From a virus (Duplodnaviria; Heunggongvirae; Uroviricota; Caudoviricetes), in IMG/VR virus record IMGVR_UViG_3300043568_002650, positions 512-64,511 of that record: a DNA stretch of 64,000 nt. The stretch is one strand, 5' to 3'. This document shows, one piece after another, positions 15,289 to 20,034 of this stretch. Every line of letters begins with the position of its first letter. The first letter of the stretch is position 1. The notes beneath the pieces were generated by a model that made no database searches, was not told the DNA's origin, and saw only the letters and a program-made list of their open reading frames with translations. Made by a program: the position numbers and the translations under genes.

Positions 15289-15370
15289 GCACGAGTGGTG
15301 GAATTGGTAGTCACGCTGGTCTTAGGAACCAGTGCCGTAAGGTGTGAGGGTTCGAGTCCCTCCTTGTGTA
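15289..15370 (+). tRNA. trnL: tRNA-Leu(TAG)
   Basis: cloverleaf with variable arm, loop CTTAGGA. Confidence 0.93.
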
Positions 15371-15447
15371 CGATGTTGGGTAATTCCCAAATGAACTTAG
15401 GGCGGTATCGGGCTAGCCTAAGAGAGATCGACAAAAAGCCCGTCCAT

Positions 15448-15551
15448 AGTCAGGTGGCGGAACGGTAGACGCTAAAATAATGGGTGGATAGCGTGCCATT
15501 GGGGTAGAACCAAGAAAGTTACGCATACAGGTTCGAATCCTGTCCTGACTA
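15448..15551 (+). ncRNA. AGTCAGG-family tRNA-like RNA A (pseudoknot in place of anticodon arm)
   Basis: acceptor AGTCAGG/CCTGACT, Leu-like D arm, T arm; near-copy at 19572. Confidence 0.7.
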
Positions 15552-15717
15552 CAGGTAGCCCTCTGCCTAGCGCTGGGTATGGATCGAAGATGGGGATAGC
15601 CTCTTGAACGTTAGTTAGAATACTTCGGTATCCTTTAATCAATGCGCACTACTCCTTCCGAATCGTGTGTCGGCACAGTTTGTACGTTCTGGGGATAATC
15701 CAAAAACGTGCATTTTT

Positions 15718-15832
15718 AGTCAGGTGGTGGAATGGTAAAGCACCTGGTGAGCGGTAAATGGTAGGGAGTCATGACCTGAGAGTATACGTTAAGTCTTGCC
15801 ATGAGATGCAGGTTCGACCCCTGTCCTGACTA
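15718..15832 (+). ncRNA. AGTCAGG-family tRNA-like RNA C
   Basis: same acceptor, D and T arms; 115 nt, no canonical anticodon arm. Confidence 0.65.
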
Positions 15833-15894
15833 CGCAAAAAACACTGGGCTAAGTTTCCTTACCTCGCGAGAGACGGGTTTTATATGCCTAACAT

Positions 15895-16016
15895 AGTTAG
15901 GTGGTGAAATGGTAGACCGCCCCTTCTCATCAAAGGGGAGATGGAGTTCGAATCTCTGAAGTTGAGTAAAATCAACGAGTATAGTACTATTACAGGTTCG
16001 AATCCTGTCCTGACTA
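15895..16016 (+). ncRNA. AGTCAGG-family tRNA-like RNA D (CAT loop, multi-arm variable region)
   Basis: CCCCTT-CTCATCA-AAGGGG arm, second TTCGAAT loop, canonical T arm. Confidence 0.65.
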
Positions 16017-16177
16017 CAAACTTTTACTTGACTCCGATAGGATAGTAAAGCTCATTGGGAATTCGGAAATACCGTGAATGAGGGCGCAAGTAACGGAAAC
16101 TTGCAATGGCGGAGTGCCAAATACACTAGAAACGAGTCCTTGGGTGATCAATGGATGGTCTGAAATCTCCGCTAACT

Positions 16178-16251
16178 GGTCCTTTAACTCAGTCTGGTAG
16201 AGTGCCGCGCTCATAACGCGAGAGTCGTAGGTTCAAATCCTGCATGGACCA
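16178..16251 (+). tRNA. tRNA-Met/Ile2(CAT)
   Basis: cloverleaf, loop CTCATAA; elongator-like. Confidence 0.88.
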
Positions 16252-16382
16252 CTGGAAAATATTTTAAATAAAAATGAAAAAATATTTTACTTATTAAAAT
16301 AAAAGGTGTATATTAGCAACCTCAAACGATCAAATAGATCCAATACGTTAAAAATTAGAAATTGATAAGATAAATAAACACG

Positions 16383-16538
16383 ATGAAAAACATTAACAAC
16401 ATATTAAACACGTCATATCAGACTTTACCTAGTTCGCCGATGAGCTGGAGTTCGATCTGTGACTTTAATGTTGTGCGTTTAAATAACACGTTTATTGATC
16501 CTAAACAACACTTAAAAAATACTCGGGAATTGATGTAA
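16383..16538 (+). CDS. putative leader peptide 2 (51 aa, MKNINNILNTSYQ...)
   Basis: lies between ATAAATA (16370) and terminator 16564-16594. Confidence 0.55.
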   Translation: MKNINNILNTSYQTLPSSPMSWSSICDFNVVRLNNTFIDPKQHLKNTRELM

Positions 16539-16563
16539 ATCTTTAATTATATCAAACTAAAAT

Positions 16564-16594
16564 AAACCCGAGTCCAAAAGATTCGGGTTTTTTT
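16564..16594 (+). terminator. intrinsic terminator/attenuator
   Basis: AAACCCGAGTC/GATTCGGGTTT stem followed by U tract. Confidence 0.85.
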
Positions 16595-16602
16595 GTTTTA
16601 TT

Positions 16603-16675
16603 GCTTTCGTAGCTCAGTCGGTAGAGTGCCTCACTTGTAATGAGGATGTCATCGGTTCGAACCCGGTCGAAAGCT
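16603..16675 (+). tRNA. trnT: tRNA-Thr(TGT)
   Basis: cloverleaf, loop CTTGTAA. Confidence 0.95.
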
Positions 16676-16733
16676 CAAAAGATTGTTGAACTTCAATCTA
16701 AAAAAAATGTTCTTTGACATATTGGCTTTAAAT

Positions 16734-16804
16734 TTTCCCCTCGTCTAACGGCAGGACACGTGGTTTTGGTCCACGGAATCGAGGTTCGAATCCTTGGGGG
16801 AAAA
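16734..16804 (+). tRNA. trnQ: tRNA-Gln(TTG)
   Basis: cloverleaf, loop TTTTGGT. Confidence 0.93.
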
Positions 16805-16810
16805 CAATAA

Positions 16811-16896
16811 GGAAGTTTAATTAAGCTGGCGCTTAACCTAGTCTTGAAAACTAGTGGTACTGAAATATGTATGGGGATCGATACCTCAGGCTTCCT
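16811..16896 (+). tRNA. trnS: tRNA-Ser(TGA)
   Basis: long variable arm, loop CTTGAAA. Confidence 0.88.
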
Positions 16897-16958
16897 CAAA
16901 AGCGATCCACTGTGCGCTATATAAAAAGTCTTGCTTCGGCATGCTACACAGTGGACAA

Positions 16959-17031
16959 CTAGGCATGGGAAAGTTGGTAATCCGCGTGGTTTGGGACCAC
17001 GAGACCGCAGGTTCGAGCCCTGCTGCTTAGA
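16959..17031 (+). tRNA. trnP: tRNA-Pro(TGG)
   Basis: cloverleaf, loop TTTGGGA. Confidence 0.93.
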
Positions 17032-17127
17032 CGATATGGCTCATTTAGAAGTATTTTATGGATCAAATACTAGTCTAAATGAGCCATAAGTAGAAACAAG
17101 ATGATCCACAAATAAAAAATTAAACTC

Positions 17128-17346
17128 ATGGAGACAACCGTAATTAAAAAAGAGCTTTATAAACAAAAGCCTATTGCAAAATTAAAATTCATCAGATTAG
17201 GAGTAGCTTATTATTCAGCCCCAATTGAACATGAAAGTAAAACAGTAGATATTGAATTTCAAGTTCCAATTACAGACATGGGAGATACTGATTTTTATCC
17301 ATTAATGGATGCAAAATTATTAAACAGATACATCACAAACCTTTAA
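17128..17346 (+). CDS. hypothetical protein inside tRNA array
   Basis: 72 aa ORF with A-rich leader. Confidence 0.7.
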   Translation: METTVIKKELYKQKPIAKLKFIRLGVAYYSAPIEHESKTVDIEFQVPITDMGDTDFYPLMDAKLLNRYITNL

Positions 17347-17399
17347 AAAAATCCAAAGATTATGGAAAGTGACAAGAGCGACAAGAGTCGCAAACGAGA

Positions 17400-17474
17400 G
17401 ATCTCGTAGCTCAGTTGGTTTAGAGCACCTCACTTTTAATGAGGGAGTCGTGGGTTCGAGCCCCACCGGGATCA
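17400..17474 (+). tRNA. trnK: tRNA-Lys(TTT)
   Basis: cloverleaf, loop CTTTTAA. Confidence 0.95.
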
Positions 17475-17478
17475 CACA

Positions 17479-17600
17479 TGGGGAAGAATGCAAAACAATT
17501 CGCTCTTTTGCCGTTCTTCAGCAATGATAGTAATTAAAGAGTTTCATCGCAATTAAACAGTAAATTTAATGATTTGGCCCTAAGAAGCCCTTCCCCACCA
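17479..17600 (+). ncRNA. candidate CCA-ending structured RNA upstream of TROVE gene
   Basis: TGGGGAAG/CTTCCCCA stem then CCA; AATGCAAAA shared with the 19759 RNA. Confidence 0.5.
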
Positions 17601-17667
17601 ATTCAATAAACACAAATTTGTATCAATAAACTAGTCCTGTTTATTGTAACAAAAATGAGTTTATTAT

Positions 17668-17740
17668 GCACCTTTAGCTCAGCTGGTAGAGCGCTTGTTT
17701 TACATGCAAGATGTCACAGGTTCGATCCCTGTAGGGTGTA
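17668..17740 (+). tRNA. trnV: tRNA-Val(TAC)
   Basis: cloverleaf, loop TTTACAT. Confidence 0.95.
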
Positions 17741-17839
17741 CAAAACCTTTTTCGAAAAAAGTTTAAGCAAAAAGTGAAACTATCAGTTTTTATATTGTAT
17801 AGTATTAATCACAAAACAAAAAATTAATTCCTTGTACTA

Positions 17840-19468
17840 ATGACAAAGTTTAGAAACGACAAACTTCGTTCGACGCTAGCTGGAATGCAGCCTCAAGCGA
17901 ATCTGGTAGAAGCGGTGAAAATCCCAAAACCAGACACTAAGAATCGTCAAGGACATGCAGCTTATTCACAAGATAAGTGGCTTAGACTCTTGACGATGTT
18001 AAACACACTAAAGCTAGAAAATCAATTCTATCGTTCTGAGACAGAAACGATGAGGGAGTTGAAAGGACTAGTCGATGAGTGTGCAAAAGAAGACGCTTAC
18101 TTCGTAGCTCAATCTATCGTGTATTCACGATGTGTTGGTGAAGGAATGAGATCAATTAACCACCTTGCGGCAAGCTACCTAGCTCCACACTGTGCGGGTC
18201 AAGAATGGGCAAAACGTTTCTATTCCCTATGGAACAAACGTACTCAATCCGGAGGAACATTATTTCGTCCAGATGATATGGCTGAAATCGTTGCATGCTT
18301 CTCAGCATTAAACGGGACTAAAGTCACAAATGCAATGAAAAAAGGATTTGCTGATGCTCTTGAAAACTTAGATGCTTATGCATTACTAAAATACAAGAGC
18401 TCTCTAGTTGACGTAATCAACTTAGTTCACCCAAATCCATCAGCGTCTAGTGCAGTAGCAGAGGTAAATGGAGAAAAAGTTCCAGTTCTTTCGGCTATCA
18501 TGAAAGGCTTATCAGTATCTGCGGATACTTGGGAAGTTGCTCAGTCTGATGCAGGTCAAGAAGTTGCGAAAGCAGTTAAAGAAGGTAAAATCGACAAGTC
18601 AGAAGCTGAAACTATCCTAAAGGAAGCTAAGGCTGAAAACTGGGATGCTCTTTTAACTGACGGTAAACTTGGAATCCTAGCTGCTCTTCGAAATATTAGA
18701 AATGTATTGAAGACAGTTAACAAAGGAGACACGGTTACTAAATTGACTGCTCTTTTATCTAGTCCAGATGCAATCCGAAAAGGAAAGATTATGCCATACC
18801 AAATTGACCTAGCTCACGAGGTAACGATCTCAGAATTCTCTGATTCTAATGCTAGAGCGATTGCACAAGCATTACTTAAAGGATATGAAGCAGCTGTGCC
18901 AAACCTTTCAGAGATGCTTCCTGGTAAGACTCTAGTAATGGTGGATTTCTCTGGATCAATGGGTACACCAATGACGGATGGCGCAAGAAGCGGAAAACGT
19001 TATACTAGTCGATGCATGGATAAAGCGGCTTTGATCGCAGCAACCATTGCAAAGGCAACAAATGGAGATGTAATCCGATTTGGTTCAAGTGCTGAATACG
19101 TAAAATGGAACGCTAACTCTGATGTATTCTCTATTGCTAGCGCAATGAAGAGAGATATGGGAGGAACTAACTTATCAGCAGCATGGGCAGTAGCTCAAAT
19201 GTCTGGACGTCAGTACGACCGAGTGTTCATCTTATCTGATAATGAGTGTAACCGTGGAAACTCTTACAAAGCATACGAGACATACACAAAAGCATGCGGA
19301 AGCCCATACGTTTACTCGGTGGATCTAGCAGCTTACGGAACGACTCAACTTGCTGGAGATAAAGTTCGTTTCTACTATGGATACGGATACTCAATGTTCG
19401 ATGATATCGCAAAAAGCGAGTTCAATCCAAATTATCACTTAGAGAAAGTTCGCAAGATCAAAATCTAA
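17840..19468 (+). CDS. rsr: TROVE/vWA RNA-binding protein (Ro60/Rsr family)
   Basis: helical TROVE-like region (LKYKSSLVDVINLVHP, ALRNIRN, IMPYQI) and vWA MIDAS VDFSGSM...GGTNL...FILSDNE. Confidence 0.85.
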   Translation: MTKFRNDKLRSTLAGMQPQANLVEAVKIPKPDTKNRQGHAAYSQDKWLRLLTMLNTLKLENQFYRSETETMRELKGLVDECAKEDAYFVAQSIVYSRCVGEGMRSINHLAASYLAPHCAGQEWAKRFYSLWNKRTQSGGTLFRPDDMAEIVACFSALNGTKVTNAMKKGFADALENLDAYALLKYKSSLVDVINLVHPNPSASSAVAEVNGEKVPVLSAIMKGLSVSADTWEVAQSDAGQEVAKAVKEGKIDKSEAETILKEAKAENWDALLTDGKLGILAALRNIRNVLKTVNKGDTVTKLTALLSSPDAIRKGKIMPYQIDLAHEVTISEFSDSNARAIAQALLKGYEAAVPNLSEMLPGKTLVMVDFSGSMGTPMTDGARSGKRYTSRCMDKAALIAATIAKATNGDVIRFGSSAEYVKWNANSDVFSIASAMKRDMGGTNLSAAWAVAQMSGRQYDRVFILSDNECNRGNSYKAYETYTKACGSPYVYSVDLAAYGTTQLAGDKVRFYYGYGYSMFDDIAKSEFNPNYHLEKVRKIKI

Positions 19469-19480
19469 ATAAAAAATAAG

Positions 19481-19564
19481 ATTGCTGGGTGGCAAGTTAC
19501 AGAGTTACTTCTTTATATCTGAAACATAAAACCAAAATACTCTCGACAGTATTCCCCCAGCAAT
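19481..19564 (+). ncRNA. Y-RNA-like RNA 1 (minimal)
   Basis: 9-bp ATTGCTGGG/CCCAGCAAT stem, interrupted helix, TTACTTC motif, 13 nt after TROVE stop. Confidence 0.6.
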
Positions 19565-19571
19565 TTTTTAT

Positions 19572-19675
19572 AGTCAGGTGGCGGAATGGTAGACGCTACA
19601 TTAATGGGTGGATAGTGTGCCATTGGGGAAGAACCATAAAAGTTACACATATGGGTTCGATTCCTGTCCTGACTA
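19572..19675 (+). ncRNA. AGTCAGG-family tRNA-like RNA B
   Basis: near-copy of 15448-15551 with compensatory GCGT/ACGC to GTGT/ACAC change. Confidence 0.7.
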
Positions 19676-19895: not shown

Positions 19896-20034
19896 TAAAG
19901 GTAATAGTAATCTAAACCGTTACTTCGTCTGTTAAACGAGAGGTCGTTGGTTCGAATCCAACATGGGGAGTAATCTTCATTAGCTCAGCTGGCTAGAGCG
20001 CTAAAATCTCGGTTGGAAACTTTCTTTACCTTTA
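19896..20034 (+). ncRNA. Y-RNA-like RNA 3 with circularly permuted tRNA-Asn(GTT)
   Basis: TAAAGGTAA/TTACCTTTA stem; order: anticodon arm, T arm, ATGGGGA-GTAA-TCTTCAT closed acceptor, D arm. Confidence 0.75.

Follow-up and report, generated by a model that had tools for sequence, protein, structure and literature searches.

Two elements in a tailed-phage genome, each 104 nucleotides (nt) long, are real and conserved small-RNA genes that have the body of a leucine tRNA and do not decode. They lie in a 64,000-nt stretch of Caudoviricetes DNA (positions 512 to 64,511 of the IMG/VR virus record IMGVR_UViG_3300043568_002650; hereafter the window) and belong to a family in which one near-constant chassis of acceptor stem, D arm and T arm carries exchangeable inserts in well over 100 uncultured viral contigs. 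We call the form shared by these two elements type A. In the reading that we favor, to which we assign a probability of about 0.6, type A is a non-decoding RNA on a class II tRNA-Leu body, matured as a tRNA would be and probably chargeable with leucine, whose insert may serve as an effector in a tRNA-centered conflict. A first-pass annotation, made from the letters of the window, had described a tRNA-like pair starting at 15448 and 19572, each with an acceptor stem, a Leu-type D arm and a T arm. Both copies are exactly there on the plus strand, with all of these parts and A73 as well, but the phage has four such paralogues rather than two.

In each copy the acceptor stem measures 7 base pairs (bp), the D stem 3 bp and the T stem 5 bp; the D loop is of the Leu type, U8-G9 is present, and A73 precedes a C (Table 1). 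Along the RNA, the D stem is followed by an 18-nt linker (J1), a 34-nt hairpin closed by a helix that we call S2, A-U48 and the T stem, with S2 ending 2 nt ahead of the T stem. J1 occupies the site where N26 and a 17-nt anticodon arm belong, and its 18 nt are exactly their summed length; it contains a near-invariant GUGGAYA and the segment AAUGG (15479-15483) that the first-pass annotation had used as one arm of a stem. The two copies are identical at 93 of 104 positions, and 2 of the 11 differences form a compensatory pair in S2. Copy 1 is 99% identical to a copy in the metagenome locus L280. Both copies exceed the gathering score of the Rfam tRNA model (RF00005, 29), only by skipping approximately 45 nt at the site of the anticodon arm, and copy 1 was not reported by a whole-window Rfam search at the gathering threshold. 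ARAGORN called 25 tRNAs in the same array, neither type-A copy among them. For annotation this means that chassis genes are missed by ARAGORN and are reported by the Rfam tRNA model as over-long hits. Folding of the elements as single sequences gave unstable, non-tRNA folds with weak z-scores, and comparative analysis alone was informative.

Table 1. Type-A elements, their parts, and neighboring features, in window coordinates
Feature	Position	Strand	Remarks
Type-A chassis RNA, copy 1	15448-15551	+	104 nt; Rfam tRNA 36.5 bits with a 45-nt insertion
Acceptor stem, 5′ strand, copy 1	15448-15454	+	pairs with 15544-15550; A73 at 15551, then C
Leu-type D arm, copy 1	15457-15472	+	A14, A15, G18G19; D stem 100% paired (66 homologues)
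J1 linker, copy 1	15473-15490	+	18 nt, purine-rich; no conserved helix; column conservation 0.88
Helix S2, 5′ strand, copy 1	15491-15495	+	partner 15520-15524; 100% paired, n=66
Invariant 12-nt block GUGCCAUUGGGG, copy 1	15493-15504	+	overlaps the 3′ end of the S2 5′ strand and CCAUU
Apical hairpin inside S2, copy 1	15499-15513	+	candidate short stem closed by GG/CC
Apical 7-nt loop, G G N A G R N	15503-15509 (copy 1), 19627-19633 (copy 2)	+	central triplet NAG in 45 of 47 distinct copies
T arm, copy 1	15527-15543	+	5-bp stem, UUCGAAU loop; 3/5 pairs changed on both sides
Third paralogue	15718-15832	+	same chassis, unrelated 115-nt form; Rfam tRNA 35.1 bits
Fourth paralogue	15895-16016	+	122 nt on the same chassis; insert adds a T-arm-like hairpin; 30.3 bits
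Ro60/TROVE protein gene (context)	17840-19468	+	Pfam TROVE and vWA_Ro60
Type-A chassis RNA, copy 2	19572-19675	+	104 nt; Rfam tRNA 31.9 bits
Helix S2, copy 2	19615-19619 with 19644-19648	+	same helix as in copy 1
YrlA-like permuted tRNA-like domain (context)	19939-20002	+	Rfam RF02553, 30 bits, under the gathering score of 69

Conservation of type A was assessed with homologues from IMG/VR and metagenomes. A first insert pattern found 43 contigs in IMG/VR, and a looser metagenome pattern, in which both arms of the two stems drawn by the first-pass annotation were left free, found 100 stretches. Type A is represented by 132 instances from lake viromes and metagenomes, with 82 distinct sequences, 3 of them chance matches; freeing the central 19 nt of the pattern added one variant type only (L369/L370). 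Covariation was counted on an alignment of 66 distinct full-length copies. GGGG, CCA, AAAGU and GGUUCRA were fixed in the search patterns, a caveat to conservation at these words. Helix S2 (GYGUG with YACRY; columns 48-52 with 77-81) was paired in 100% of cells, with double changes from G-C to A-U in 3 sequences and from C-G to U-A in 14, G.U intermediates, and one change from G.U to G-C at a third pair. The acceptor, D and T helices were 99-100% paired with covariation (five of the seven acceptor pairs changed on both sides), and U8, A14, A15, G18G19 and U54-C56 were present. Columns 53-61 were 99.8% conserved although CCAUU had been left free in the metagenome pattern, and columns 67-76 were 98.5% conserved, so that conservation of the insert equals or exceeds that of the chassis. 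It ends at the tRNA boundaries, and the flanks differ among type-A contigs. With approximately 130 copies bearing invariant blocks and covarying helices, the suggestion that these elements are selected tRNA mimics is supported.

The structure originally drawn for the insert, a covarying pseudoknot, fared less well. It combined a stem formed by AAUGG and CCAUU (stem 1) with pairing of GCGU to a downstream ACGC, which changes to GUGU and ACAC in the second copy. This co-change is real in the window copies, and the helix concerned is paired throughout the 66 homologues. Stem 1 is perfect in both window copies, but it is broken without compensation in homologues: only 75.8% of its cells were paired (columns 36-40 with 53-57), and its three inner pairs were broken in 30, 10 and 40 of the 66 sequences, none of them compensated, while the 5′ arm drifts (AACGA, AAUGA, AAUAG, AACAA and others) and the 3′ arm hardly varies. 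If GUGG is paired with CCAU as an alternative stem 1, both strands are near-invariant; a G.U pair survives the single C-to-U change, and two pairs are lost in one copy. RNAalifold, run independently, predicted helices for acceptor, D, S2 and T along with a small hairpin at the apex, but no stem 1; a nested model, free of a pseudoknot, was 99.5% paired on the alignment. Because S2 covaries, whereas stem 1 is broken without compensation and is absent from the RNAalifold structure, the pseudoknot originally proposed is not conserved, although it is possible in the two window copies. The first-pass annotation had named a lack of covariation in homologues as one observation that would tell against it, and the answer divides between the two helices, one covarying and the other not. 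The covariation thus supports an irregular hairpin that is closed by a long-range helix.

It had also been stated that these RNAs have no anticodon loop. None is found at the canonical position, but the apical 7-nt loop bears a central NAG triplet in 45 of 47 distinct copies (AAG in 27, UAG in 16, and CAG and GAG in one each, with AGG in the other two); copy 1 has UAG and copy 2 has AAG. NAG corresponds to the Leu anticodons for CUN codons with wobble-like variation, flanked by G at the position of U33 and by a purine at ‘37’. Type A might accordingly be viewed as an aberrant tRNA-Leu that still decodes CUN codons, with the apical loop serving as the anticodon loop on an extended arm. The restriction of variation in those 45 copies to the wobble-like position, the purine at ‘37’ and the intact leucine identity are as this explanation would predict. 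Nevertheless, we consider it highly improbable, as the near-universal U33 is replaced by G, A34 dominates, the triplet is AGG in two copies and AAA in one variant, the apical stem is just 2-4 bp in length, and ARAGORN rejects type A. Furthermore, the arm is approximately 12 layers long and is set between an 18-nt linker and a 2-nt ‘variable loop’, so that the distance from anticodon to acceptor end cannot be canonical. The earlier view of these RNAs as non-decoding is supported by the chassis RNAs collected: a canonical anticodon arm, with a 5-6-bp stem and a 7-nt U33/R37 loop at the usual place, was present in none of 261 distinct chassis RNAs, and it is this arm that type A lacks among the attributes of a tRNA, the tRNA helices and tertiary nucleotides being present.

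These 261 distinct RNAs with the AGTCAGG chassis were collected over all loci fetched. A pattern combining 6 nt from the 5′ half of the chassis with 13 nt from its 3′ half matched at least 120 loci in IMG/VR, and among the matches listed nearly all had the same chassis with a differing insert of 45-80 nt, often several per contig. The first 184 distinct chassis RNAs fell into 112 insert clusters. GUGG or GGUGG was enriched (45 of the 112 clusters, against 18.5 expected), and no larger motif common to the inserts was found. The four chassis genes of the window are all of those in the whole 128.5-kb contig, the inserts of the two extra paralogues being unrelated, and the 3′ chassis motif, which occurs four times in the window, was absent from 100 shuffles. 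Thus, a near-constant Leu-type chassis, replacement of the anticodon arm, several types per genome and recurrence of one type in unrelated phages are all observed. Full-text literature searches found no published description of the chassis family, and a set of more than 100 unrelated inserts on one tRNA-Leu-like chassis is apparently unpublished.

Type A is the sole chassis RNA in a 95%-complete phage of 32.7 kb that encodes a primase-polymerase and an SNF2 helicase, and larger phages, of 121 and 281 kb, carry it as well. At least five different acceptor stems, which show compensatory changes, bear the type-A insert, and D-loop hairpins are present in some copies and absent from others. About half of the chassis loci sit in tRNA arrays and the other half are without a nearby tRNA. 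A conserved protein partner encoded next to the chassis RNAs was considered and rejected, since no neighboring protein family was constant and the best neighbor cluster, terminase, was present at only 13 of 115 loci. The lone gene in the 32.7-kb phage, the lack of a constant neighbor and the varied acceptor stems together indicate that type A is a self-sufficient, horizontally exchanged module. Exchange can be seen at the two window sites themselves: in the related contigs L330 and L357 the site of copy 1 holds two chassis RNAs with other inserts between identical flanks, and in L330 the site orthologous to copy 2 (L330:6733-6806) holds a chassis with a different and short, 74-nt form. The presence of other chassis RNAs at these sites in the closest relatives is direct evidence of cassette replacement, for which the constant chassis halves are plausibly the recombination substrate. 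In addition, L359:6640-6742 and the fifth element of L012 share an insert type with box C/D-like UGAUGA and CUGA words on two chassis that differ in acceptor stem and D arm, one copy being located directly behind a Ro60 gene; passage of inserts from one chassis variant to another thus occurs as well.

Such mobility raises the question of whether the elements have no function of their own, being either tRNA-Leu pseudogenes in decay or neutral cassettes that hitch-hike and spread when chassis repeats recombine. Inserts are indeed gained, lost and replaced between close relatives, and the thermodynamic stability of the type-A insert is weak. Neutral spread is nonetheless very unlikely: in phages ranging from 32 to 281 kb the insert keeps invariant blocks (99.8% over 9 nt) and shows compensatory changes, conservation stops at the tRNA boundaries, and the nearly complete 32.7-kb phage retains type A as its only such gene.

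With respect to hosts, a search of GTDB (185,579 species-representative genomes) gave 27 matches, all of them on contigs of metagenome-assembled genomes (MAGs) and all of them chassis RNAs rather than ordinary tRNA-Leu genes; approximately half were labeled Bacteroidota and several came from lake projects. Contigs of 100-250 kb that had been binned as Bacteroidota, Peribacteria and other MAGs (L302-L328) carry chassis RNAs, and these may be mis-binned phage genomes. No chassis was found in GenBank phage records, and none in isolate genomes among the GTDB matches. In six small phages (L019, L036, L049, L066, L071 and L079) the chassis RNA is followed by a ‘tRNA-???’ call of ARAGORN of approximately 69 nt, at a spacing of 3 nt in most of these loci and beside terminase or packaging genes in the two that have annotated neighbors.

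The first-pass annotation placed one copy inside a Ro60/Y-RNA cluster. This location is correct, as copy 2 begins 104 nt past the Ro60 stop codon, amid Y-RNA-like genes and approximately 260 nt upstream of a YrlA-like domain, but a functional tie is unsupported, and adjacency to Ro60 holds for copy 2 only. A type-A RNA that partnered the neighboring Ro60 protein as a non-permuted Y RNA would account for the position of copy 2 and for the chassis-like RNAs found just downstream of Ro60 at some other loci. However, a Ro60 homologue was present in none of 30 type-A contigs elsewhere, three of which are rated 95-100% complete, in a search that recovered four of four positive controls down to 39% identity, and type A was absent from all 33 Ro60 loci. 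The 140-kb contig L330, with a completeness rating of 100%, has a Ro60 that matches that of the window at 99% identity and flanks at least 95% identical, and yet this Ro60 adjoins the chassis with the 74-nt form. The Rfam YrlA model (RF02553) gave no match to the chassis elements at E up to 1, and their order is acceptor, D, insert and T, which is not permuted. A role as a Ro60 ligand is thus extremely improbable, and the Ro60 link of copy 2 is incidental. Between Ro60 and copy 2, at 19478-19566, we observed a long imperfect stem, the 5′ strand of which includes UGGCAAG and GAGUUACUUC; it recurs after Ro60 in many of the 33 related loci and resembles a simple Y RNA.

The sequence context of the chassis RNAs matches that of the phage’s real tRNAs at both ends, as expected of the tRNA mimic that had been proposed. 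The nucleotide after N73 is C in all 25 window tRNAs and in all four chassis RNAs, the full CCA is encoded by just three of the 25 tRNAs, and position -1 is U in all four chassis RNAs. A phage CCA-adding enzyme or RtcB was found neither in this phage nor in four other chassis-bearing genomes, and host enzymes must therefore finish the ends. The window also contains an 85-nt class II tRNA-like gene (16811-16895) that ARAGORN misses and that scores 42 bits with the Rfam tRNA-Sec model (gathering score 47); judging by the UGA in its anticodon loop, this gene probably encodes tRNA-Ser(UGA).

The leucine identity set is likewise intact. E. coli leucyl-tRNA synthetase (LeuRS) requires A73, A15-U48, G18G19, A20a and contacts of the D loop with the T loop, while the anticodon and variable arms are dispensable: a minimal tRNA-Leu lacking both is still leucylated, and the anticodon arm is needed for LeuRS editing only (PMC9976931). 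This identity set is present in the chassis in the form of sequence features. A73 is found in 58 of 66 type-A copies, A14, A15 and U48 are invariant, and G18G19 is nearly so; moreover, nucleotides 5-26 of the family consensus chassis (22 nt) are 100% identical to tRNA-Leu genes in all 5426 complete E. coli genomes. Because all of the elements that LeuRS requires are kept and the enzyme ignores the anticodon arm, type-A RNA is probably chargeable with leucine. Hairpins of 20-65 nt just before G18G19 are seen in the D loops of L202, L210, L216, L225, L231, L237, L245 and L259, and the chassis of such copies thus has a second cargo site.

Attempts to find a target or partner for the insert were negative. 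No Rfam family matched the type-A insert at E up to 10. The invariant GUGCCAUUGG (15493-15502) is perfectly complementary over 10 nt to E. coli 23S rRNA nt 2703-2712, in the helix 96 region; this was one of six tests, 1 in 60 shuffles equalled the match, and the host is not E. coli, so that the complementarity is probably due to chance. An antisense target was rejected on these grounds and on the scattered distribution of sites in MAGs described below.

Several observations weigh against the reading that we favor. Beyond the existence of a conserved RNA gene, we infer all of it from sequence. The chassis could be nearly identical because it spread horizontally not long ago or underwent gene conversion, and not because a partner selects for it. 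The type-A insert taken alone folds no better than its shuffles (-9.3 kcal/mol, z = -0.7). A73 is missing from 8 of 66 type-A copies, and approximately 10 of 82 have D-loop hairpins that are expected to impair recognition by LeuRS, so that charging may not be universal. Reverse complements of the two invariant blocks gave scattered matches and no consistent site in five Bacteroidota MAGs, and a partner sought through Rfam, rRNA complementarity and candidate-host genomes was not found. Some of the same facts would suit a chassis that is a handle for processing and stability only, bearing an ordinary regulatory or aptamer RNA and involving neither aminoacylation nor tRNA-binding proteins. More than 100 unrelated inserts on one chassis, the location of approximately half of the loci in tRNA arrays, and the tolerance of D-loop insertions and non-A73 variants are consistent with such a scaffold. 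On the other hand, any type of tRNA would serve for RNase P and 3′ processing, whereas the family uses one Leu-type body and keeps the full LeuRS identity set, including the 22 nt identical to E. coli tRNA-Leu, and no base-pairing target was found in 23S rRNA or the Bacteroidota MAGs. We regard a pure scaffold as unlikely, albeit with an appreciable chance of being correct.

Based on these considerations, we propose that type A is a leucylatable, non-decoding effector RNA that would be produced and used in the following way. The chassis RNA would be transcribed together with the tRNA array and its ends cut as in tRNA, with U at -1 and an encoded C74, after which host enzymes would complete the CCA. 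Charging with leucine by LeuRS would probably follow, and decoding would not. By supplying maturation, stability and access to tRNA-binding proteins, the chassis would present the invariant surface of the insert, the putative effector, for binding to a conserved host factor. Variable and anticodon arms are where defense nucleases cut tRNAs, and these nucleases are opposed by phage tRNAs (PMC13096335; PMC13056530); our best guess is that, in a phage-host conflict over tRNA, type A would interfere with a host enzyme directed at tRNA, as its decoy or as a competitor. The first-pass annotation had suggested a decoy (for a synthetase, EF-Tu or a nuclease) or else an aminoacyl donor, and either of these, or another role, may apply. 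The identical chassis halves may provide recombination handles through which inserts are swapped between phages. In its most far-reaching form, which we put forward tentatively as a possibility, the family would be a natural effector-RNA library that phages of freshwater, Bacteroidota-type hosts maintain on a single tRNA-Leu body open to leucylation. Type A would then be a charged and non-decoding member, its invariant, NAG-topped arm engaging a host tRNA-directed enzyme (a defense nuclease, LeuRS, EF-Tu or an aminoacyl-transferase), and the chassis halves would allow effectors to be swapped between unrelated phages. Since LeuRS pays no attention to the anticodon arm, the use of a leucine body offers a clue that can be tested, and type A is a good entry point to the family, being short, very widespread, endowed with sharp invariant surfaces and alone in a 33-kb phage.

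Type A most closely resembles class II tRNA-Leu (RF00005), such as E. coli tRNA-Leu(CAG) and the phage’s own tRNA-Leu(UAG) at 15289-15371, with which it shares the 7-bp acceptor stem, A73, C74, U8, A14, A15-U48, G18G19, the 5-bp T stem and the UUCGAAU loop. It differs in length (104 versus approximately 85 nt) and in having an 18-nt unpaired linker and a 34-nt irregular hairpin in place of the anticodon and variable arms. The rnaC (species 1, 139 nt) and rnaD (species 2) RNAs of phage T4 are also non-decoding, lie in a cluster of phage tRNA genes next to a GIY-YIG homing endonuclease, and have a tRNA-like T arm and 3′ acceptor strand; unlike the chassis RNAs, they are single genes with no Leu-type D arm and no common chassis sequence. 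The Rfam tRNA model gave no match to either at E up to 1, the best score being 17.5 bits for tRNA-Sec on rnaC, and the resemblance is one of analogy, not homology. YrlA Y RNAs (RF02553) are likewise tRNA-derived and non-decoding, and YrlA is recognized by tRNA enzymes, but in contrast to type A they are circularly permuted, end in a Ro60-binding stem at the anticodon position and are adjacent to Ro60 (PMC4201824). The tRNA-like domain of transfer-messenger RNA (tmRNA) has an acceptor/T-arm body with no anticodon and is charged by AlaRS, a synthetase indifferent to the anticodon, as we propose for LeuRS and type A; type A is much smaller, has no mRNA-like reading frame and retains an intact D arm, and its charging is a prediction. 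We know of no SmpB-type partner for type A. Engineered tRNA scaffolds also join a constant tRNA body to a cargo that replaces the anticodon arm, and exploit cellular tRNA maturation and stability. Type A differs from them in being natural, phage-encoded and Leu-specific, with cargo types that are conserved across unrelated phages. Thus, while tRNA-like non-coding RNAs have been known as isolated cases, such as T4 rnaC and rnaD, the Y RNAs and tmRNA, the chassis family reuses one tRNA body for more than 100 inserts that move between unrelated phages, which points to a general route by which phages may obtain stable and possibly aminoacylated effector RNAs through the tRNA machinery of their hosts.

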